Source: Acidobacteriota bacterium (GTDB taxonomy: Bacteria; Actinomycetota; Acidimicrobiia; Acidimicrobiales; RAAP-2). Taken from it: a stretch of DNA of 64,000 nucleotides. How positions within the stretch are numbered: the stretch's first letter is position 1; each line of letters begins with the position of its first letter. The DNA is taken from assembly GCA_018970215.1 (NCBI GenBank), contig JAGWWX010000003.1:4668-68667 (forward strand), written 5' to 3'. Both the position numbers and the translations under genes were made by a program. Below are positions 80 to 46,460 of the stretch, piece after piece. The notes under the pieces were generated by a model. It worked only from the letters and a program-made list of their open reading frames with translations, did not search any database and was not told where the DNA came from.

Positions 80-990
80 TAGAGACCGAGCGCCGTCGTG
101 GCAGCCTTCACGCCGGGCGTATCACATACCGCCGCGGGGGCATTGTTCGTCTGCGAACAGATACCGGCGGTGATGTAGTTCGCCGATGCGATGATTGCCT
201 GGGTGAGCGGATTGTTCGGGTTCTTGAGACTCACCGCGATGTCACCACGAGCTTGATCCTTAAACACTGACGGTGACAATGACGAGCCCGCCCACATCAC
301 TCGATTGCCGATGGTGAAGAAAGGAATTGATCCCGACTGTCCGGCAGACATCGAAGGAAAGTACGTGGCGTTGTCGTACTTGGTCACAATCTGCGTCTGC
401 AACGCGGTGGGCTTTTGCAGAGGTTCGTAGGAGGTCCCCGCAGCGTTGAGTGTGTTCTTGGCCTCTTCAACGGTCTGCAAGGTGACCCACTCGGATTGGT
501 AGGTCGCCTTGTAGAAGGTAAAAGTGGGTGTATTGGGGAAGTAGTCCTGAGCCGACGATGAAGAGTTCCCGAGGTTGGCCCACGTCCCAAATCGCGAAAG
601 GGCAACGATCACGGGCCAACGCTGCGCGGCGCAGTAGGGGCAGTATTCGGCACCGTAGTACAAAACCCCCACAGTTGAAGAGTTGTTGAACGTCAATTTC
701 GGTTCGGAGGCGTGAATCTGGGGAGGCGTGACGTTAACGACCGGAGAGTTCACACCAACGGCGTCAAACACGCTCTGAGGAACTGTTGTGAGGTCACGGA
801 TAACGCTCGCGTCAGCGGGTGTCCATTCGGTATCCGCCTGAGTTCCGTTGCCGCTCGATACTTTCACGATGACGAGGACGCCGACGACGGCGACCACGAT
901 GCCGACAGTCAGCCAGGTGAAGAGTCCGGCGGGACGACCCGACGCCTTCGTGGCGGGCGAAGGGGAGCTTTTCTTAGGGGTCTGGGTCAC
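79..990 (-). CDS. DUF929-family membrane-anchored thioredoxin-like protein
   Basis: YGAEYCPYCAAQRWP (CPYC) motif and an N-terminal TM helix. Start moved to GTG 990, which has a GGAGG RBS; the longer ORF overlaps the NUDIX gene. Confidence 0.8.
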   Translation of the reverse strand: MTQTPKKSSPSPATKASGRPAGLFTWLTVGIVVAVVGVLVIVKVSSGNGTQADTEWTPADASVIRDLTTVPQSVFDAVGVNSPVVNVTPPQIHASEPKLTFNNSSTVGVLYYGAEYCPYCAAQRWPVIVALSRFGTWANLGNSSSSAQDYFPNTPTFTFYKATYQSEWVTLQTVEEAKNTLNAAGTSYEPLQKPTALQTQIVTKYDNATYFPSMSAGQSGSIPFFTIGNRVMWAGSSLSPSVFKDQARGDIAVSLKNPNNPLTQAIIASANYITAGICSQTNNAPAAVCDTPGVKAATTALGL

Positions 991-1869: not shown

Positions 1870-2981
1870 TCAGCAACGGCGCGTTCAACAGCATCCAGCA
1901 GTCGCGCGGAACACCCGAGCGCACCGGCGGGTGGCGCAAGATCCGCGACAATCGCCTCCACGAGGGGCTCGACCGCCAGCATTGCGGGCTGTCCCGTGTC
2001 CCCGCCGTGTGCAACTACCGTGTCGAGCGGAATGCTCGCGAGAAGGGGAACGCGCAGAGTCTCGGCGAGCTCCGCACCTCCACCTACTCCGAAAATTGCG
2101 TGGTGCTCACCACACGAGCAACGAAACGGGCTCATATTTTCGATAACACCGAGAACGCGAATGTGACTGCGACGCGCGAAGTCGGCAGCCCGTGAGGCCA
2201 CGCGTTGCGCGGCGCGTGCGGGTGTTGTCACGACAACTGCGCTCATCTGCGGCAAAAGGCGTGTGAGTCCCATGGCGATGTCGCCGGTGCCAGGGGGGGT
2301 GTCGATAATGAGGTAGTCGATTCCCGCCCAGTCGGCATCCTCAATGAACTGTTGAACAGCTCGTTGCACAATCAGTCCACGCCATAAGAGGGCGCGGTCA
2401 TCCTCACTGAGAAAACCCATAGAGAGAAGCCGAATCTCTCCTTTACCCTCACTTCGAGCGAGGGGTTGCATCTTGCCGTCGATCGCCGCTACGGAGCCTT
2501 CAATTCCGAGGAGTCGAGGCAACGAGAAACCCCAAATATCGGCATCAATGACGCCGACGATGAATCCCCGCCGAGCGAGTGCAACGGAGATGTTGGCGGT
2601 AACGGATGACTTCCCGACGCCCCCTTTACCGGACATCACGGCGATGACGGGAGTGGTTCGGGGGATGGTTGTCTCCGGGGCGTGAGCCTGCGCAATGCGT
2701 CGGGCAGTGTCCATCAGACTCGCCTTCGCGTCGGGGGGCATCTCGCTGATCTCAATCATCACCGATGTGACGCCCTCGACGGTGAGTGCCGTCTGGGTAA
2801 CGTCGCGCTCGATGCGCTGGCGTAAGGGGCATCGAATTGTCGTCAGGGCGACGGGAATGTGAGCGGTGCCGGCGGTAATGGTGATCTCCCCCACCATGCC
2901 GAGATCCACAATGGAAGCCCCCAGCTCTGGGTCCAGAACGTGACGAAGGCGGTCACGTAGTTCCTGGCTGAGCGACTCCAT
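1857..2981 (-). CDS. mrp: Mrp/ApbC (NBP35) Fe-S cluster carrier ATPase with N-terminal DUF59 domain
   Basis: VLDPELGASIVDLGMV (DUF59), SGKGGVGKS deviant Walker A, DTPPGTGD and ENMS..CxC motifs. Confidence 0.92.
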   Translation of the reverse strand: MESLSQELRDRLRHVLDPELGASIVDLGMVGEITITAGTAHIPVALTTIRCPLRQRIERDVTQTALTVEGVTSVMIEISEMPPDAKASLMDTARRIAQAHAPETTIPRTTPVIAVMSGKGGVGKSSVTANISVALARRGFIVGVIDADIWGFSLPRLLGIEGSVAAIDGKMQPLARSEGKGEIRLLSMGFLSEDDRALLWRGLIVQRAVQQFIEDADWAGIDYLIIDTPPGTGDIAMGLTRLLPQMSAVVVTTPARAAQRVASRAADFARRSHIRVLGVIENMSPFRCSCGEHHAIFGVGGGAELAETLRVPLLASIPLDTVVAHGGDTGQPAMLAVEPLVEAIVADLAPPAGALGCSARLLDAVERAVADYPS

Positions 2982-3070
2982 AGGGGGAACGCTACCGGCT
3001 GGCTCCGTGGCGTACAGGGCGATGAATCGCTACGCTTGAGTCATACGTTGACCTGGTAATAAGGAGAATC

Positions 3071-3433
3071 ATGACGACGACGCCCGTGGACCTCTCAAAC
3101 AAGACCACCCCCATTACTCTGACCGATTCCGCCGTCATGAAGGTGGCGGAACTCATCGCGGCGGAAGCGGCTGGCGAGGAGCTGGCCCTCCGAGTGGCGG
3201 TGAAGCCCGGTGGCTGTTCTGGATTCAACTACGACATGTTTTTTGACACGGAGTTCGGTGCCGATGATGTCGTGACGCAGTTTCAGAGCGTCAAGGTGGC
3301 GGTCGACCGCGCCAGTGCGGACTTATTGAAGGGATCCACCCTGGACTACGCCGACGGGCTTCAGGGTGCCGGGTTTCATATCACCAACCCCAACGCGACA
3401 AAGACCTGCGGTTGCGGCAACTCTTTTAGCTAG
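3071..3433 (+). CDS. A-type Fe-S carrier protein (IscA/ErpA/HesB family)
   Basis: GGCSG and NPNATKTCGCGNSF motifs, with an AAGGAG RBS. Confidence 0.93.
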   Translation: MTTTPVDLSNKTTPITLTDSAVMKVAELIAAEAAGEELALRVAVKPGGCSGFNYDMFFDTEFGADDVVTQFQSVKVAVDRASADLLKGSTLDYADGLQGAGFHITNPNATKTCGCGNSFS

Positions 3434-3447
3434 TTCACTAGAACGTC

Positions 3448-5010
3448 GTGTCCGCCGATGTTTCGTTTCGCCTGAACGGCGAAACCGTCACGGCGCCCTC
3501 CGAGGTATCTCTCCTTGACGCTTTGCGTGAGTGTCTTGGCGTCACGTCAGTCAAAGATGGGTGTGCACCACAAGGCCAGTGCGGAGCCTGCACCGTCATC
3601 GTGAACGGAGAAGCACGCGTGAGCTGCGTGACGTCAGTGGGTCGGGTCGCCGATGCGGATGTCACCACCGTGGACGGCCTTGACCCAGACGTACGTGATC
3701 GATGGGTAATGGCATTTGAGTCAACGGGGGCATCTCAGTGTGGCTTCTGTACGCCGGGACTTGTCTGTCGGCTGGTGAGTACCGCCGAACGTCGCGGGTT
3801 GAGTGATACGTCGATTGAACGGGCGTTGGCGGCGCATCTCTGTCGTTGCACGGGGTGGCAGCCCATCACCGAGGCAGCGATACTGATGCGCGAAGGTGGC
3901 GATGTTGCGCCCCGCAACGCCACTCTTGCCGCCGTTCGTGCGGGTATCGAGCAAGGTGTTCCGCAGGCTGCCGGGGCGGATGTCGTACTCGGCCGCGCAC
4001 CGTACTCTGATGACACAGCTCCACTTGACGCTCAACTGTGGTGGACGAACGGGGCGGTTGACTACGTTGCCGCACGGTCACGCCGAGACGCGCGGCGCGA
4101 GACGGGTGCCGTCCAAGGGCGAAATTCGACGGTGCCACTGAGGGCCGTATTACCGATCCCGCCGGGCGAGTGGGCCGTCAGTCTCCAGACCACATTCTGT
4201 GAACCGGCGTATGTCGAGCCCGACACCAGTTGGTGTGAACCGGGTGGTGAGCCGTCGTCACCGGCGGCAAACGCGGGCGCGTTTGGTGCGAAACGACGCA
4301 GTGTAATTCGCGATGATGCCCAACGCCTCGCGCAGTCGACGGGTCAAGCGGTCACGGTGGCCTGGAGCCGTGAAGCGGTGGTACGTAAAGGGAAGAAGCG
4401 TCCTCCCCTCTCGCTAGGACTTCGCTCGGACGGATCGGGCGTCGTCCACGTTGCGTTAACGCCACACAGCGATGATCTCACTGATCTCGTGGCATTAGTA
4501 CAAGGAGTACTACCTGATGTCTCGGTTGAGCTTCGCCACGTGCTGGGGCCGCCCGTGGGCTCGACCCATCGAGGCGCGATATTGGCAGAGCTTCTCGCGG
4601 CGCGAGCGTCGATCGGACGGGGAGCTGGCGATCCCATAACCGTCGTGTCTCCCAACGGAGCTACCGCGACCGTCACATTTGACGGCGACCGCGTCGACGC
4701 GGTGGTCGAAGCGGGTGAGCCACTATGTGATGTCACGCTGCGCAGCTACGTCATGGGTGCAATTCATCAGGCCGTATCCATGGTGTGGAGTGAAGGAATT
4801 GCTGTGAACGATGCGGGTGAGCCCGTCGATCTGACGGTTCGGAGCTTCGGCGTCGTCCCGGCGAGCGCGACCCCTTTGATGAATGTGACCATTCAAGCGT
4901 CCTCGTCACCCGCGGTGGCCGTTGGCGGCGCAGTGTTCGCGGCCACGTTGGCCGCCGTATGGTTACACGAAGGCGGTTCGTCGTGGCCGACAAGAAGGAA
5001 GGATGCGTAA
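3448..5010 (+). CDS. 2x[2Fe-2S] domain fused to a shortened, degenerate xanthine-dehydrogenase/aldehyde-oxidase Mo-binding-like domain
   Basis: KDGCAPQGQCGACT...SC and QCGFCTPG...CRCTG are intact. Remnant Mo-domain motifs are EPAYVEP, AGAFGAK and GAIHQAV. Confidence 0.75.
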   Translation: MSADVSFRLNGETVTAPSEVSLLDALRECLGVTSVKDGCAPQGQCGACTVIVNGEARVSCVTSVGRVADADVTTVDGLDPDVRDRWVMAFESTGASQCGFCTPGLVCRLVSTAERRGLSDTSIERALAAHLCRCTGWQPITEAAILMREGGDVAPRNATLAAVRAGIEQGVPQAAGADVVLGRAPYSDDTAPLDAQLWWTNGAVDYVAARSRRDARRETGAVQGRNSTVPLRAVLPIPPGEWAVSLQTTFCEPAYVEPDTSWCEPGGEPSSPAANAGAFGAKRRSVIRDDAQRLAQSTGQAVTVAWSREAVVRKGKKRPPLSLGLRSDGSGVVHVALTPHSDDLTDLVALVQGVLPDVSVELRHVLGPPVGSTHRGAILAELLAARASIGRGAGDPITVVSPNGATATVTFDGDRVDAVVEAGEPLCDVTLRSYVMGAIHQAVSMVWSEGIAVNDAGEPVDLTVRSFGVVPASATPLMNVTIQASSSPAVAVGGAVFAATLAAVWLHEGGSSWPTRRKDA

Positions 5011-5373: not shown

Positions 5374-6060
5374 TTAAAACTCTCGGTCGCCACCAAACTT
5401 GTATCCCACACTTCTCACCGTCTGGATAAGGTGAGCGTTCTCTTCACCAAGTTTTGCTCGTAGTCGACGAATATGAACATCGACGGTTCGAGCACCGCCG
5501 TAGTACTCATAGCCCCACACTCGGTTGAGAAGCGTTTCGCGGGTGAAGACTCGCTGGGGATTGGTGGCAAGAAAACGCAGGAGTTCGTACTCCATGTACG
5601 TGAGGTCCATAGCCCGACCATCGATGGTGGCTTGGTAGGTCTCGAGATTCAAGATCAAACCACCTTCTTCGACGAGCGACGTCGAACCTTCATGGCCGGC
5701 TCGGCGCAGTCGATGATGGAGCCGTGCCGCGAGTTCGCTGGGGTCGACCGGTGCGACCACGAAGTCGTCAAAGAGGTCTTCGCGAAACGTCAGTTCATCC
5801 AACTGATACCGATCAAGCACTAAGACAATGGGCGATATCGTGCGCTCGCGCTGCCGAAGCTGACGGCAGAGATTCATGGCGTCGGTGAAGTTCACAGCGG
5901 TGGCGTCCACGATGGCCCCGTCGTAGCCCGTCGACGGTTCGCCGCGAGCGATGTCATTGAGCTTCGTTGAGCCGACACACGTCACCTCGACGCCGGCCAG
6001 CTCGACAGCTTTGCGCAGCGGACCGTCAAGGGTCGGAATGACGAGAAGGGCGTCTTTCAT
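5374..6060 (-). CDS. glnR: GlnR-like OmpR-family response regulator
   Basis: LTYMEYELLRFLATNPQRVFTRETLLNRVWGYEYYGGARTVDVHIRRLRAKLG winged helix with an atypical receiver domain. It is TAATG-coupled to the upstream glutamine synthetase gene. Confidence 0.75.
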   Translation of the reverse strand: MKDALLVIPTLDGPLRKAVELAGVEVTCVGSTKLNDIARGEPSTGYDGAIVDATAVNFTDAMNLCRQLRQRERTISPIVLVLDRYQLDELTFREDLFDDFVVAPVDPSELAARLHHRLRRAGHEGSTSLVEEGGLILNLETYQATIDGRAMDLTYMEYELLRFLATNPQRVFTRETLLNRVWGYEYYGGARTVDVHIRRLRAKLGEENAHLIQTVRSVGYKFGGDREF

Positions 6061-7349
6061 TAGAGGAGCGGAAGGTAACTCGCCCATTCGAATGGTGTGA
6101 CCTCTGACCGATACCGAGCCCATTCTTCACGCTTATTGCGGAGAAACCACTCGACGAGGTGATCACCCAAGGTGTGGTGCAGTAGCTCGCTTTGTTCCAT
6201 GAGGTCAACTGCCTCAGCGAGCGACCTCGGTAATGAACCGATGACCTCACCTTCCGGCGGTATCTCGTACGCGCCCTCGACTCCTCGCAGACCCGCGGCC
6301 AGAATGACGGCGAAGGCCAGATACGGGTTCGCCGCGGGATCGGGTGCACGATATTCCACGCGCGTGGACTCTCGACGACCCGTCTTTACCGTGGGGACAC
6401 GAACGAGTGACGAGGGGATCGCGTGCGACCACGACGTGTGTACAGGAGCTTCGTGACCCGGCACGAGTCGTTTGTAAGAGTTCACCCACTGATTGGTAAC
6501 GGCCGTGATTTCGGCGGCGTGACGCATGAGCCCCGCAATGAAGTGCTGTGCGAGGGGCGACAGACCATACGGTCCATCGCCAACGAAGGCATTGTCTTCG
6601 CCCCGCCACAGCGATACGTGAGTATGCATACCTGAGCCCTGTTCTTGTGAGAGGGGTTTGGGCATGAAACTGGCGACCAAGCCCGACTGTCGAGCGAGTT
6701 CTTTAATGACGTGGCGAGTTGTCATCACGTGATCGGCCATCGTGAGAGCATCGGTGTAGCGCAAATCGATTTCGTACTGCCCGGGCGCATCCTCGTGTTG
6801 AGCGTGTTCAACGCCGATACCCATCTCTTCGAGAGTCAGGACGGTCTGTCGCCGTAGCACGCTCCCGGCGTTGTCAGGGAGTAAGTCGAAGTAGCTGCCA
6901 TTATCTACGGGAACGGGTCCTCGCGCTCCGTCGATATCGGAAAAGTAGAAATACTCCAGTTCGGGGGCGACGTAAAAGGTGTAGCCCTTCTCGTGCGCGT
7001 CGCCCAGCACGCGGCGGAGTTGCTGACGTGGACAACCTTCAAACACCGATCCGTCGGTGTTCACAATGTCGCAGAAGACTCGCGCGACACCTTCGCCGGA
7101 AGCGTGCCACGGGAGAAGCTGAAATGTCGTGAGATCGGGCCGAGCCAGAACATCAGACTCACGCGAACGTGAGAAGCCGTCGATGGCGCTGCCGTCAAAT
7201 GTCATACCGTCGTCTAATGCGTCCTCTAGTTCAGCAGGGGTGACGTGAAAGGCTTTGTGGCGACCGAGGACATCGGTAAACCACAGCTGCACGAATCGAA
7301 CACCTCGCTCTTCAACGGTGCGCAGCACGTATTGGACTTGGTTCTGCAT
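6060..7349 (-). CDS. glnA: Glutamine synthetase type I family protein (GlnA2-like, short form)
   Basis: FDGSAIDGF, APELEYFYF, HEDAPGQYEI, FMPKP...GSGMHTH, NSYKRLVPGHEAP and RVEYRAPDPAANPYLA motifs. Start at MQNQVQYV is likely. Confidence 0.9.
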   Translation of the reverse strand: MQNQVQYVLRTVEERGVRFVQLWFTDVLGRHKAFHVTPAELEDALDDGMTFDGSAIDGFSRSRESDVLARPDLTTFQLLPWHASGEGVARVFCDIVNTDGSVFEGCPRQQLRRVLGDAHEKGYTFYVAPELEYFYFSDIDGARGPVPVDNGSYFDLLPDNAGSVLRRQTVLTLEEMGIGVEHAQHEDAPGQYEIDLRYTDALTMADHVMTTRHVIKELARQSGLVASFMPKPLSQEQGSGMHTHVSLWRGEDNAFVGDGPYGLSPLAQHFIAGLMRHAAEITAVTNQWVNSYKRLVPGHEAPVHTSWSHAIPSSLVRVPTVKTGRRESTRVEYRAPDPAANPYLAFAVILAAGLRGVEGAYEIPPEGEVIGSLPRSLAEAVDLMEQSELLHHTLGDHLVEWFLRNKREEWARYRSEVTPFEWASYLPLL

Positions 7350-7530
7350 GCCATATTCTGACGCAGGTTCGCGCGCGGGGCGAATTGAAAGGTCTCTACC
7401 AGTATTTAGGTAATTTTCCACCGTTATTTTTCGTCAAATGTAAAGTTTTGCATCAATCACGAGCACAGAAACAATCTGTCTCAACGGAGAGCACTACGGA
7501 TCTAGTGGGAACTGTTCGTAAGAGAAATGA

Positions 7531-7575: not shown

Positions 7576-8697
7576 TTAACGACGCTTCGCGGCCTTCTTC
7601 GCCGGCTTCTTGGCAGTTGCCTTTTTAGTGGCAGCCTTCTTTGCCGACTTCTTTGCGGTCTTCTTCGGAGCAGCTTTCGCCGCACCTCCCTTGTCGAAGG
7701 CGCCACAGACGGTCTCGACCATGACGGCGGCAACGGCGTAGGGGTCCATGTTGGCATTTGGACGTCGGTCTTCGAGCCAGCCCTTCTTTTCGCGAGCTGT
7801 CTGAATCGGAATACGAATCGATGCCCCTCGGTCAGACGTACCCCACGAGAACTTGTTCCACGGTGCCGTCTCGTGCTTACCGGTCAAGCGCTCCTCAATG
7901 CCGTGTCCATACACCGCAATGTGCTCCATGACACGCTTACCAATTGCTTCGCAAGCGGCTTCGATGGCCTTCAGCCCACCTGCCACCCGCATCTCTTTGG
8001 TCGAGAAGTTGGTGTGTGCACCTGCGCCGTTCCAGTCACCCTTCATCGGCTTGGCGTCCCAGTTGACGTCAACGCCGTAGTCCTCAGCGATGCGCTCAAG
8101 TAGCCAGCGTGCAACCCAGAGTTGGTCGGCGACAGCGACGGGTCCAAGAATTCCGATCTGAAACTCCCACTGCGACATCATCACTTCGGCGTTGGTTCCC
8201 TCGATCGCGAGTCCCGCACGGAGACAGGCGAGAGTGTGAGCTTCAACAATGTCACGACCGGCCATCTTGGCGCCACCAACACCGCAGTAGTAGGGACCCT
8301 GTGGAGCGGGGAAGCCCGTTTCGGGCCAGCCGTAGGGACGCCCGTCTTGGTAGAAGGTGTACTCCTGCTCGATGCCGAACCACGGCTCGTACTTCGCACC
8401 GAACTTCTTTTCCATCGCAACGGTCTTCGCGCGCGTGTTCGTGGAGTGTGGTGTGCCGTCGGCGTTGAGGACTTCGCACATCACGAGAATGTCGTTCGGG
8501 CCGCGTAGCGGATCGGGACAGGTGAAGACAGGCTGGAGCAGGCAGTCAGAACTGTGACCATCGGCCTGATTCGTACTCGAGCCGTCAAATCCCCACATGC
8601 TTGGCTTCTTGCCATCCGCGACGATGCGGGTCTTGCTACGCAACTTGGCCGTCGGCTGTGTGCCGTCGAGCCAGATGTATTCGGCTTGGTATGCCAC
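7576..8697 (-). CDS. glnII: Glutamine synthetase type II with a Lys/Ala-rich C-terminal tail
   Basis: AEYIWLDG, WGFDGSSTNQA, GIEQEY, NAEVMMSQWEFQIG, DWNGAGAHTNFST, RLTGKHET, DRGASIRIP and EDRRPNANMDPY motifs. Confidence 0.95.
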   Translation of the reverse strand: MAYQAEYIWLDGTQPTAKLRSKTRIVADGKKPSMWGFDGSSTNQADGHSSDCLLQPVFTCPDPLRGPNDILVMCEVLNADGTPHSTNTRAKTVAMEKKFGAKYEPWFGIEQEYTFYQDGRPYGWPETGFPAPQGPYYCGVGGAKMAGRDIVEAHTLACLRAGLAIEGTNAEVMMSQWEFQIGILGPVAVADQLWVARWLLERIAEDYGVDVNWDAKPMKGDWNGAGAHTNFSTKEMRVAGGLKAIEAACEAIGKRVMEHIAVYGHGIEERLTGKHETAPWNKFSWGTSDRGASIRIPIQTAREKKGWLEDRRPNANMDPYAVAAVMVETVCGAFDKGGAAKAAPKKTAKKSAKKAATKKATAKKPAKKAAKRR

Positions 8698-11456: not shown

Positions 11457-12287
11457 ATGAGTACCGGAGAGAACAAATACTCACGGACGTCAACGAATGA
11501 CTGGACACTGCTGGCGCGGTTGCCACTGTTGAACCAGTTCGAAGAGTACGACCTTGGCGTAACTATCCAAGACGGATTCGCCGCCGAGAAGGAGTTGGCG
11601 AGCAACTCGGACTTGTCGGCGAAGGAGAAGCGTCGCTTGCGGCGGGCCGTGGAAGACGGTGTGCTCGCGCGGCGGACGTTGTTTGAGCACAACGTACTTC
11701 TGGGAGTGAATGAGGCGCACAAAACGCGGGGCGGTACCCTCACGGAGCGTGAGAACTATGCCGTGGAAGGTGTGTGGCGGGCCACTGAAACGTTCGATCC
11801 CGCGCGGGGCACACGCTTTTCAACGTACGCCACGCCGTGGATTCGTAACTATGTGAATCGTGGCACCGGGGCGGATCGACTGATCTATCTGCCCGAAGAG
11901 GTGCAGTTGGAGGCCAAGCGAATGTACGGCTACATGGCGGAATTCGTTTCGGTACATCACCGTGAAGCCACGTACGCAGAGGTTGCCGATGGCTTGGGCG
12001 TTTCAATCTCTCGCGTCAATGAGGTATTGCGCGTGGCTCGCGGTGTCGATTCGCTCGACGTCGTTCGGTCCCCTGATGGTGATCTGACGTTGGGCGACAT
12101 GATTGTGGACGGCAACTACGGCGGATTAGATGCCCTCGAGGACACTCTTGAGGCAGAGGGTCTGCTGGGGGTGACCGCGGCAACCGTCACCGCTCACACG
12201 GTGCACGTCGGTGGTCTGATCCGCCCCATTGACGTGGAGCCTCTCAACCGTCTCCTGCAGTTCTTGGAGAACGGAGGTCAGCAGTGA
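11457..12287 (+). CDS. Sigma-70 family factor, regions 1.2-2-3 only (no region 4)
   Basis: LPLLNQFEEYDLG (1.2), EGVWRATETFDPARGTRFSTYATPWIR (2.2-2.4), LIYLP..REATYAEVADGLG (3) and SLD..LTLGDMI (3.2). GAGGA RBS. Confidence 0.85.
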   Translation: MSTGENKYSRTSTNDWTLLARLPLLNQFEEYDLGVTIQDGFAAEKELASNSDLSAKEKRRLRRAVEDGVLARRTLFEHNVLLGVNEAHKTRGGTLTERENYAVEGVWRATETFDPARGTRFSTYATPWIRNYVNRGTGADRLIYLPEEVQLEAKRMYGYMAEFVSVHHREATYAEVADGLGVSISRVNEVLRVARGVDSLDVVRSPDGDLTLGDMIVDGNYGGLDALEDTLEAEGLLGVTAATVTAHTVHVGGLIRPIDVEPLNRLLQFLENGGQQ

Positions 12288-12469
12288 GCGAACGGCGCCG
12301 ACACCTTTCTGCGGAGGCCTCCGCATTCTTGGCGGCCCGCTTTGGGACCGTAACGGGCGTTCCTCTGACGCTCGAGGAGCTCGCCAACATCATGGGAACA
12401 ACGCGAGAGCACGTCAGGGTTCTGGAACGACGCTTCCTTCGTGAAGCACAAGAGATCGCCGCGTCATAG
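12284..12469 (+). CDS. Stand-alone sigma-70 region 4 (HTH) polypeptide, 61 aa
   Basis: LSAEASAFLAARFG..GVPLTLEELANIMGTTREHVRVLERRFLR matches region 4.1-4.2. It has its own GGAGG-N6-GTG start, overlapping the upstream TGA (GTGA). Confidence 0.8.
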   Translation: MSERRRHLSAEASAFLAARFGTVTGVPLTLEELANIMGTTREHVRVLERRFLREAQEIAAS

Positions 12470-12481
12470 GCGTGTGGAAGG

Positions 12482-12517
12482 GTCGTTCATCGGTGCATTT
12501 ATCCACCGATGAACGAC
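12482..12517. terminator. 14-bp stem hairpin between the two sigma genes
   Basis: GTCGTTCATCGGTG-catttatc-CACCGATGAACGAC. Confidence 0.6.
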
Positions 12518-12572: not shown

Positions 12573-14060
12573 TTGAAAGAGGGGACCTTCTACGTGGTGA
12601 AGGATCGCATAGACCGCGACGATGAGGACGGCGTACGTACGTATCTCACGGGCATCGGTCAATACAACCTGCTGAATAAAGAAGGCGAAGTCAAACTCGC
12701 CAAGCTGCACGGCTACGGCAAGTTGGCGACTGAACTCTTGACACTCGCAACCGAGAAAGGCGCGCTCGACGCGCTCACGCCAGAGTCGCAGATTACGTTG
12801 TCGGAAATCGTCGAAGATCTTGAAGTGACGGAGTCTCTCGATGGACGAACCAACACATCATCATTCGACTATGCGGTCTACGAAATTCCGAGTTCTCTCC
12901 ATACCACGATGCGAAACTTCGCCGGCAAGCTCGAGTTAGTGAAGAAGGGCAAAGCGGTATCAAAGGATGCGCGCACCGTCAAGCTCACGCCCCGTGAAGT
13001 CATTCCCATGAAGCGATTAAAAGTTCGAGGCGAAGAAGCACAGGAAGAGTTCGTCACTTCCAACCTCCGACTCGTGGTGTCAATTGCCAAGAAGTATCAG
13101 GCGTCGGGTCTGCCGCTCCAGGACCTTATCCAAGAGGGCAACTTCGGTCTGATGCACGCCGTTGAAAAATTTGACTACCGCAAGGGCTTTAAGTTCTCGA
13201 CCTACGCCACGTGGTGGATCCGCCAGTCGATCACTCGTGGTATCGCGAATACGGGTCGCACAATTCGCCTTCCCGTTCACGCGGGCGACACGCTCGCACG
13301 GGTACAAAAAGCGAAGAACCGACTGGAAATCAACTTGGGTCGTCCGCCCACACTCGTGGAACTGTGTTGGGAAACCGACATGAATGATTGGACGCCGGAG
13401 AAGAAACGCCAAGAAGCTGAGAAGGCCAAAGCTGAGAAGAAGGAAAAAGCGGCCAAAAAACTCGAAGGTGATGACGACGTCTCTGCGCCATCTGCGAAAT
13501 CTGCAAATAAGCGTTTTTGTCCACGTAGCCCGTGGGACCGAGGCTCCACGTACGAGGTCGGCGAAATCGTGTCGTATAAGCAGGTCTTTTACATCGCCGT
13601 TAGCGATACGACCGGCGACGAACCTCAAGGTGATAGCAAGGACAAGTCGTGGGCGAAGTATGAAGACCGCGGCGAAATCTGCGGTAACAAGTGCAAGGCT
13701 CTCAAAGATGCGCTGACGTACGCCAATGATCCCGTTTCGCTGTCTGAACCTCTGCGTGAAGACGGAGACGCCGAGCTCGGTGATGTCATTGAAGATCGCT
13801 CGGTGGTCTCACCAAGCGACGTGGCTGCGGAAAGCCTGATCCCGGGTGAAATCAAGCGAGGTCTGACGGTCCTGGAAGACCGCGAGCGTGAGATTTTGAT
13901 CAAGCGATACGGCTTAAACGGAGGCCGCCCGCTGACACTCGAAGAAGTGGGCGAGCAGATGGAGTTAACGCGTGAACGGATTCGCCAGATTGAATCACGC
14001 GCAATGAGCAAGCTGCGTCACCCCGCCGTTGATATGGGCTGGCGAGATCTCTTGAACTAG
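12573..14060 (+). CDS. RpoD/HrdB-like sigma-70 factor with an enlarged non-conserved region and a CBM5/12-like insertion in region 3
   Basis: DGVRTYL..IG..NLL (1.2), [46 protein letters not shown] (2), TLEEVG...[19 protein letters not shown] (4). The start may instead be GTG 12594 or 12597. Confidence 0.92.
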
Positions 14061-25657: not shown

Positions 25658-25733
25658 GCCTGTGTAGCTCAGCTGGTAGAGCAGCTCATTCGTAATGAGC
25701 AGGTCGTGGGTTCGAGTCCCACCGCAGGCTCCA
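25658..25733 (+). tRNA. tRNA-Thr(CGT)
   Basis: GCCTGTG acceptor stem, TAGCTCAGCTGGTAGAGC D arm, GCTCA-TTCGTAA-TGAGC anticodon arm, GGTTCGAGTCC T loop and encoded CCA. Confidence 0.97.
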
Positions 25734-44335: not shown

Positions 44336-44411
44336 TGGAGCCGACGGTGGGACTCGAACCCACGACCTGACGATTACAAATCGCCTGCGCTACCAGCTGC
44401 GCCACGTCGGC
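44336..44411 (-). tRNA. tRNA-Thr(TGT)
   Basis: Reverse complement GCCGACGTGGCGCAGCTGGTAGCGCAGGCGATTTGTAATCGTCAGGTCGTGGGTTCGAGTCCCACCGTCGGCTCCA folds as a cloverleaf with anticodon TGT. Confidence 0.96.
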
Positions 44412-46281: not shown

Positions 46282-46343
46282 TCCCACAGGCTAGGACAGG
46301 TCCGATATTGACATCGATGCCGAAGTTCCGGCATACTGGATAT

Positions 46344-46448
46344 GTCATCAAGAGCGACTGAGGGACGGGCCCGTTGACGTCGCGGCAACCAGGGTGATGA
46401 TTGGGTTCTCCGCCCATCACTCCAGGTGCCAAAGCCCGTGCGATGAGT
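46344..46448 (+). ncRNA. SAM riboswitch (SAM-I clan, apparently lacking P4)
   Basis: TCATCAAGAG..GAGGGA..GGCCC..GAC..CGGCAACC...GGTGCCAAA..GATGAG. P1 is TCATC/GATGA, immediately before the AGGAG SD of the next gene. Confidence 0.85.
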
Positions 46449-46460
46449 TAGGAGTCATCA

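Follow-up and report, generated by a model that had tools for sequence, protein, structure and literature searches.

The 64,000-nucleotide window analysed here (positions 4,668 to 68,667 of contig JAGWWX010000003.1 in assembly GCA_018970215.1, placed by GTDB in the Acidimicrobiales of the class Acidimicrobiia) contains a sigma-70 family gene of the RpoD/SigA type (group 1/2). Its product carries a carbohydrate-binding module (CBM) of the CBM5/12 type in an insert within sigma region 3. This is a real, rare and unannotated domain combination for which no precedent was found in the literature searched; the searches returned no published report of a CBM5/12 sigma factor, of an insertion in region 3 or of inserts in Acidimicrobiia sigma factors. 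The original prediction, made from the letters of the window alone, knew of no such module in a sigma factor, and the architecture is indeed unannotated in the database sources checked, where the precomputed Pfam entry lists sigma domains alone and the source names say only 'sigma-70 family'. It is also rare rather than common: scans of 185,579 GTDB species genomes and of JGI metagenomes found the motif 'FCPRSPWD' in one genome and at one locus, respectively, and a single sigma factor stands among the best 150 of the 1017 proteins matched by the insert profile described below.

Compared with the 311-312 amino acid (aa) homologues of Acidimicrobiia, the window sigma has two insertions (alignments A1/A3; Table 1). 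Residue numbers are counted from position 12573, and AlphaFold positions are given in the numbering of the 488-aa protein where stated. The second insertion, which takes the place of the three-residue turn 'PED' between '...ELCWETDM' of helix 2 and 'KALKDAL...' of helix 3, has exactly the boundaries first noted (13383-13694), and its location in the helix 2/helix 3 turn of region 3 is upheld by the alignments. It opens with a conserved 'NDWTPEK' and a lysine/glutamate-rich (K/E-rich) helix, the latter also found in the CBM-less sister clade P0003, and continues into a linker that is predicted to be disordered and varies in length among relatives, with indels and substitutions. The entry motif 'FCPRSP', invariant in CBM-bearing sigma factors and present as 'FCP' or 'C' in all relatives with the cysteine loop, leads into the beta-module, which is followed by a return segment containing a CxxxC.

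Sequence and predicted fold together identify residues 321-361 as a true CBM5/12 homologue. The Pfam model PF02839 matches the whole protein with 18.8 bits, the insert alone with 22.2 bits and the module with 23.9 bits (E-values of 4e-5 to 1.7e-3 overall and of 4e-5 to 1.4e-4 for the insert and the module, with 4e-5 for the module). All are below the gathering score of 26.2, and the sub-threshold match is consistent in that 13 of 14 module variants match PF02839 and no other family is matched. The model PF14600 (CBM_5_12_2) gave no match at E <= 10 with the window protein or at E <= 0.01 with the variants. In the reverse direction, a 60-position profile made from four sigma inserts was run against 1.84 billion representative proteins and retrieved 1017 of them at E <= 1e-3, of which 162 reach E <= 1e-10. 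Long proteins bearing 3-33 copies of the unit make up most of the set, and all eight that were sampled are CBM_5_12-positive (44-245 bits). Against the PDB, the profile matches the CBM12 domains of Vibrio chitin deacetylase (E = 6e-6), and when widened with tail-fibre repeats it matches the ChiA1 chitin-binding domain 1ED7 (E = 8e-11). With the insert alignment as query, a word-indexed homology search gave no hits.

The AlphaFold model of the module, computed with the tail-fibre repeat alignment as input, is a small beta-domain whose strands have a predicted local distance difference test (pLDDT) score of 74-86. Its best Foldseek matches in the PDB are the CBM5/12 domains of ChiC, MmChi60, ChiB and the Vibrio deacetylase and the tail fibres of cyanophage A-1(L) and Agrobacterium phages, with probability 1.00, E about 4e-3 and a root-mean-square deviation of 1.5-2.7 Å over 43-45 residues; the template modelling score is 0.51-0.57 when normalised to the query and 0.68 on 2D49 when normalised to the target. 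Among viral models (BFVD), tail-fibre, collagen-like and 'ChiC_BD' phage proteins are best (E = 3e-4). Confidence in the fold match is only moderate because the domain is small. The CBM5/12-type assignment of the original prediction is thus supported by the Pfam match, the reverse profile search and PDB matches in both sequence and predicted fold, and the module is neither disordered nor devoid of similarity. It shares its sequence pattern and predicted fold with CBM5/12 domains (PF02839; 1ED7, Streptomyces griseus ChiC 2D49/1WVV, Vibrio cholerae deacetylase 4NZ1 and Serratia marcescens ChiB); unlike them, it is cytoplasmic, lies inside a sigma factor as a single copy and scores below the Pfam gathering score.

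By alignment, the closest relatives of the module are tandem CBM5/12-like repeats of phage tail fibres. It aligns without gaps to 45 such repeats, and those of phrog_9851 and phrog_5073, cyanophage A-1(L) (8KEC) and Agrobacterium phage 7-7-1 (9RKV) are 30-36% identical to it. PHROGs 9851, 5073 and 26419 are matched by the retrieved proteins, six of which (P0134, P0152, P0153, P0189, P0206 and P0213) match tail-fibre families with E-values of 1e-22 to 1e-115; the sigma module itself matches phrog_9851 with E = 1.5e-4 and phrog_5073 with E = 6.9e-3. The position-by-position consensus of 668 repeats, W-D-x4-Y-x2-G-[DE]-I-V-x-Y-x4-Y-I-A-x2-D-T-T-G-x2-P...W (x8 between P and W), is common to tail fibres and the sigma module, as is the lack of the tryptophan pair (WW) of canonical CBM5/12 domains. 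In contrast to the tail-fibre arrays of 3-33 units, the sigma module is single, framed by cysteines and encoded in a chromosomal transcription factor gene rather than in that of a virion protein.

The module had been proposed to make the protein a one-component sensor sigma, in which it would bind a small cytoplasmic ligand such as oligomers of N-acetylglucosamine (GlcNAc) or muropeptides. The homology and fold similarity to chitin-binding CBM5/12 domains are genuine, and several conserved aromatic residues remain. Those that remain are, however, the fold-core positions conserved in all repeats, while the positions that contact chitin in CBM5/12 domains are Asp or Ser: the canonical WW pair is replaced by Ser344-Asp345, confirming the caveat that the pair is absent, and the tryptophan of 'GWEP' in 1ED7, which we take to be W687 of ChiA1 and pivotal for chitin binding, aligns to Asp349. 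The same loss is seen in the 668 tail-fibre repeats, where the WW positions are A/Q/T/L and D/A/N and the 'GWEP' position is N/D/Q. The module therefore belongs to a subfamily without the classical chitin-binding aromatics, and the conserved neighbourhood of the gene has no sugar-related genes. Sugar sensing by the module is thus judged unlikely, and the proposal of a one-component GlcNAc-oligomer or muropeptide sensor, which these substitutions weigh against, is one to which we would now give very little credence.

A feature overlooked in the original prediction is that the insert, as read from the alignments, is nested in an older four-cysteine loop common to CBM-less relatives. The window sigma has exactly four cysteines, Cys265, Cys316, Cys370 and Cys374. 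Among the sequences of alignment A3, the last three occur in all 8 relatives whose region 3 has an insert and in none of the 50 plain homologues; the conservation of Cys265 was read from alignment A1, and all four are invariant also in 19 CBM-bearing variants. The loop is found at two smaller sizes: in P0007, P0008 and P0010 the region 3 insert is 27-34 aa long and has four cysteines and no CBM, and in P0003 it is 71 aa long and has the K/E-rich helix, the four cysteines and no CBM. A word-indexed search with P0010 added a single fragment, P0313, to the cysteine-loop sigma factors. Cysteines are absent from most plain sigma factors, and others have a CxxC on helix 2. Alignment of P0003 with the window sigma gives an indel of exactly residues 321-361 ('FCPKAP/KNGEKGEEC' against 'FCPRSP/W...A/KYEDRGEIC'). 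The simplest history would lead from a plain sigma to a four-cysteine loop, then to expansion by the K/E-rich helix and finally to capture of one tail-fibre-type unit. The insertion is old: it has the same base composition as the remainder of the gene, and no direct or inverted repeats flank it; a recent mobile-element insertion was rejected on the same two grounds.

We propose, with a probability of about 0.5, that the insert is a zinc-stapled surface appendage, in which a four-cysteine metal clasp presents the beta-module as a docking surface rather than as a sugar sensor. It would have arisen by a two-step, nested and lineage-specific insertion into the solvent-exposed helix 2/helix 3 turn of region 3 in the RpoD/SigA-type sigma of freshwater and estuarine Acidimicrobiia. 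The first step would have produced a loop with Cys265 on helix 2, Cys316 in 'FCP' and Cys370/Cys374 in the CxxxC at the start of helix 3; in the second, one 41-residue CBM5/12 unit of the tail-fibre subtype would have been captured between Cys316 and Cys370, the K/E-rich helix and disordered linker between Cys265 and Cys316 forming an excursion from the domain. The four cysteines may chelate one metal ion, most likely a structural zinc. By fastening the module at its two ends to the helices of region 3, this ion would allow the three-helix domain to keep its fold. In the holoenzyme the beta-module would be exposed on the outside of region 3, where its surface could dock a protein partner, nearby DNA or elements of RNA polymerase and so tune holoenzyme activity. 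Several observations weigh against this proposal. The cysteine spacing C...CPxxP...CxxxC differs from the classical CxxC knuckle; pLDDT in the insert is 60-86 and falls below 50 around Cys370/374 in the model of the isolated module; the conserved gene neighbourhood contains no obvious partner; and the CBM-less P0003 clade is the more abundant one, so the module is dispensable for this type of sigma.

The same cysteines could instead form a redox or metal switch, in which oxidation or loss of a regulatory centre, built from a labile zinc, from disulfides or as an Fe-S cluster, rearranges region 3 and the adjoining region 3.2 finger with the CBM as a passenger, and transcription by this sigma would respond directly to oxidative or metal stress. 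Thiol and zinc switches control sigma activity elsewhere, as in the ZAS anti-sigma factor RsrA and the cysteine-rich extracytoplasmic function (ECF) sigma factor CorE. In line with a switch, the four cysteines are the sole ones in the protein and invariant across the clades with a region 3 insert, plain homologues mostly having none, and further cysteine-rich inserts in P0007/P0010 and P0031 suggest a habit of the lineage. An invariant set of four cysteines is nevertheless equally expected of a purely structural zinc site, and Pfam gives no Fe-S or ZAS family match; the switch is a tentative alternative that we rather doubt. The inserts just mentioned lie between regions 1.2 and 2 (alignment A1) and read 'GDCADVKGDCSIKGCPKS' in P0007/P0010 and 'ECQCQRCECGSDHPKSRCC' in P0031 ('ECQCQRCECG...RCC'), and some plain sigma factors, P0026 among them ('ELCEECEMPED'), have a CxxC on helix 2 of region 3. 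Decoration of this sigma with cysteines seems, from these alignments, to be a recurrent feature of Acidimicrobiia.

The sigma gene and its module are under purifying selection. The ratio of nonsynonymous to synonymous substitution rates (dN/dS), computed for the window against its 85% relative at saturated dS, is about 0.11 for the module, 0.016 for the core of regions 2-3 and 0.02 for the CxxxC segment. The fold-defining residues W321, Y327, G330, I332, V333, Y335, Y340, G348, P351 and W360 are kept in 19 insert variants, down to a module identity of 38-41% (P0005). These figures bear on the possibility that the insert is a tolerated passenger of a permissive loop, made of a K/E-rich helix and a tail-fibre repeat without a function of their own and kept only since their removal or misfolding would harm region 3. 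Lineage-specific inserts are common in RNA polymerase subunits; the present one evolves at about 10 times the rate of the core (dN 0.24 vs 0.02), its linker is of low complexity and prone to indels, and the sister clade that has no CBM is the larger (the P0003 cluster has 79 members, the CBM-bearing clusters 16, 15 and 2). Against a mere passenger stand a module dN/dS of about 0.1 maintained across saturated synonymous divergence, the retention of every fold-defining residue over so wide a range of identity and a frame held in >30 sequences from many sites. We consider a passenger rather unlikely.

The contig is of the metagenome type and comes from an uncultured organism, and one relative, P0006 (452 aa), is a clearly chimeric, tandem-duplicated sigma that is probably an assembly artefact; a chimeric assembly, frameshift or pseudogene would be the most trivial explanation of the insert. 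It is contradicted by single unitigs from three independent metagenome runs, which span 13197/13203 to 14044/14200, and so both junctions, with 1 to 7 differences, and by the insert being carried by four 90%-identity clusters with 31 sequences and 19 distinct insert variants (NCBI, ENA, JGI and Logan), in an open frame under purifying selection. Misassembly, which had been named as a way in which the original prediction could fail, is thereby excluded, and the chance of any such artefact is negligible. Metagenome runs that contain the stretch number at least 20, come from at least nine studies and sample freshwater, estuary, reservoir, aquatic and sediment habitats. In locus L002 the orthologue was called as two overlapping open reading frames (ORFs), 3500-3784 and 3741-4892 (94 and 383 aa); this is probably an assembly frameshift error, because the cluster member P0312 has the full 488 aa.

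A more far-reaching reading combines both parts of the insert: a receptor-binding repeat of a phage tail fibre, domesticated by a housekeeping-type sigma and set on a four-cysteine metal or redox centre, would let the holoenzyme sense a signal directly, without an anti-sigma factor. Through the cysteines that signal could be the redox or metal state; through the beta-module it could be a phage or host protein, a muropeptide or a glycan. We regard this as quite unlikely.

The sigma factor that hosts these inserts is otherwise intact, as first suggested, with regions 1.2, 2, 3 and 4 all above the Pfam gathering scores (Sigma70_r1_2, 26.5 bits; r2, 76.3; r3, 43.3, split in two; r4, 62.4). The mechanical ORF, 12573..14060 (+), encodes 495 aa from a TTG; the true start is likely the GTG at 12594, which gives 488 aa and matches the database protein P0001 and the starts of homologues. 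Region 1.1 is missing, as it is from all 311-aa homologues, region 1.2 starting 12 residues past the start of the 488-aa protein (19 in ORF numbering). The closest NCBIfam models are RpoD/SigA/SigB, every one below its cut-off (PRK05658 RpoD, 304 bits vs 555; SigB PRK07921, 275 vs 464), and none is reached because the inserts break up the alignments. The full-length AlphaFold model has a mean pLDDT of 74.8, and in Foldseek it matches the sigma-A/sigma-70 chains of initiation complexes from Thermus, Mycobacterium, Streptomyces and E. coli. Insert 1, which the original prediction had not noticed, takes the place of ~25 aa found in plain homologues; AlphaFold models it with confidence as a bundle of helices (pLDDT about 90), and it is under strong purifying selection (dN/dS 0.04-0.07). 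MzaA, the sigma factor of the MZA anti-phage system, was ruled out as an identity, as NF041931 gives 276 bits against a cut-off of 800, a generic sigma similarity only, and the genomic context is a housekeeping one. Substitution patterns follow the frame of the sigma gene, and on that ground the overlapping ORFs 13080..13628 (-) and 13384..13716 (+) were dismissed as artefacts of high GC content. A search upstream of the gene gave no sigma-70-like promoter; the sole terminator-like hit lies within the gene on its minus strand, hits being fewer than in shuffles; and no RNA run carrying this stretch was found.

Table 1. Features of the sigma factor gene and its inserts (window positions; residues counted from 12573)
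Feature	Residues	Position	Strand	Evidence
Sigma-70 family gene (RpoD/SigA-type, group 1/2), from likely start		12594..14060	+	ORF list, Pfam, homologue starts
Insert 1, 101 aa, helical, between regions 1.2 and 2.1	45-145	12705..13007	+	Alignments A1/A3
Region 3, N-terminal part (helices 1-2)		13278..13382	+	Split Pfam Sigma70_r3, alignment
Cys265, in helix 2	265	13365-13367	+	Cys positions
Insert 2, 104 aa	271-374	13383..13694	+	Alignments A1/A3, coordinates checked
Conserved 'NDWTPEK'	271-277			
K/E-rich helix, 10 basic + 5 acidic	275-296	13395..13460	+	AlphaFold helix 268-289 (488-aa numbering), composition
Linker, acidic then Ser/Ala/Pro-rich	297-314	13461..13514	+	pLDDT <50 at 292-308 (488-aa numbering)
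'FCPRSP' entry motif	315-320	13515..13532	+	Alignments
Cys316	316	13518-13520	+	
CBM5/12-type beta-module, W-x38-W-A, one repeat unit	321-361	13533..13655	+	Pfam, profiles, PDB, PHROG, AlphaFold/Foldseek, indel boundary
Return segment, CxxxC running into helix 3	362-374	13656..13694	+	
Cys370	370	13680-13682	+	
Cys374	374	13692-13694	+	
Region 3 helix 3, region 3.2 linker, region 4		13695..14021	+	Pfam r3 377-416, r4 431-483; invariant columns

The gene lies in chromosomal DNA of about 59% G+C, surrounded by genes for a GlnR-like regulator, two glutamine synthetases, NAD synthase, a HAD hydrolase, two TrkA proteins, an amino-acid permease and a proton pyrophosphatase. In relatives the order is NAD synthase - (small ORF) - (split sigma) - this sigma - HAD - TrkA - TrkA - permease - pyrophosphatase. 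The plain 311-aa sigma P0112 of marine Acidimicrobiia, which the collection indexes in 1025 blocks, likewise follows GlnR - glutamine synthetase - glutamine synthetase - NAD synthase. This synteny makes the window gene the positional orthologue of the compact, ubiquitous RpoD/SigA-type sigma of the lineage. Its closest relatives, numbering in the thousands, are Acidimicrobiia sigma factors of 311-312 aa (named sources Acidimicrobiales, Acidimicrobiaceae and Ilumatobacteraceae). The compact proteins (P0112 and P0043; 'RNA polymerase sigma factor RpoD/SigA [Acidimicrobiales bacterium]' in NCBI) are 66-68% identical to the window sigma overall and nearly identical in regions 2, 3.2 and 4, and occupy the same genomic position; they have 25 aa and 3 aa, usually with no cysteine, where the window sigma has its inserts of 101 and 104 aa. 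The description of the protein as a primary-type sigma, made in the original prediction, accordingly stands with regard to positional orthology, and is weakened by the lack of region 1.1 and by no NCBIfam RpoD cut-off being reached.

The only other sigma within the window is a divergent paralogue directly upstream, split into the coupled ORFs 11457-12287 (+) and 12284-12469 (+). The first ORF (276-305 aa) holds regions 2 and 3 and the second (61-68 aa) region 4; the stop and start codons overlap in GTGA or ATGA, preceded by a GGAGG-like site. The split is found also at 806-1711 + 1708-1914 in L001, at 2275-3192 + 3192-3380 in L002 and at 2630-3475 plus the next ORF in L006, and the split sigma is missing from the loci of P0007 and the marine P0112. 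The split is not a sequencing error, because it is kept in four diverged genomes. The paralogue has the look of a sigma factor that naturally consists of two polypeptides, a concept also represented by SigO-RsoA of Bacillus subtilis. The 124-nt gap between its region 4 ORF and the sigma gene contains a perfect 14-bp inverted repeat (GTCGTTCATCGGTG ... CACCGATGAACGAC, 8-nt loop) at 12482-12517 with no T-run after it, which could be a terminator, an attenuator or a protein-binding site.

Further upstream, genes of the glutamine synthetase family lie at 6060-7421 (-) and 7576-8697 (-), next to the GlnR-type regulator at 5374-6123 (-); in the second, the catalytic-domain model is matched only over positions 69-156 of 344 (63 bits). 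The block GlnR - glutamine synthetase - glutamine synthetase - NAD synthase is the conserved upstream neighbourhood of the sigma across Acidimicrobiia. An Rfam scan of the window found a SAM riboswitch at 46342-46449 (+) with 60.8 bits and tRNAs at 25658-25730 (+) and 44339-44411 (-).

Large, clade-restricted inserts at surface loops of invariant machinery are known from the sigma non-conserved region and from the lineage inserts of RNA polymerase, and both inserts of the window sigma are of this kind. Insert 1 corresponds in position to the sigma non-conserved region and is its equivalent in this lineage. The sigma inserts known so far are situated between regions 1.2 and 2.1, whereas insert 2 lies in the helix 2/helix 3 turn of region 3; no described insert in that turn, and no CBM-type sigma insert, was found in the literature. 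With ECF41, ECF42 and CorE-type cysteine-rich ECF sigma factors the window sigma shares the concept of a built-in regulatory domain or of metal-binding cysteines. Those are, however, group 4 proteins with C-terminal extensions, while the window sigma belongs to group 1/2 and has an internal insertion whose regulatory role is putative.

Region 3 is among the most conserved pieces of the bacterial transcription machinery, and the literature searched yielded neither a folded foreign domain within it nor a CBM5/12 or tail-fibre module in any sigma factor. The natural series from a plain sigma through the four-cysteine loop and the K/E-rich helix to the beta-module offers a way to study how an essential machinery tolerates, and perhaps exploits, the insertion of domains. 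The case further exemplifies the cellular reuse of a module of virion type. Should the insert be only a decoration, it marks a permissive site usable for sigma factor engineering; if the cysteines do bind metal or sense redox state, the finding would mean that control independent of an anti-sigma factor is built into a main sigma of abundant freshwater Actinomycetota.

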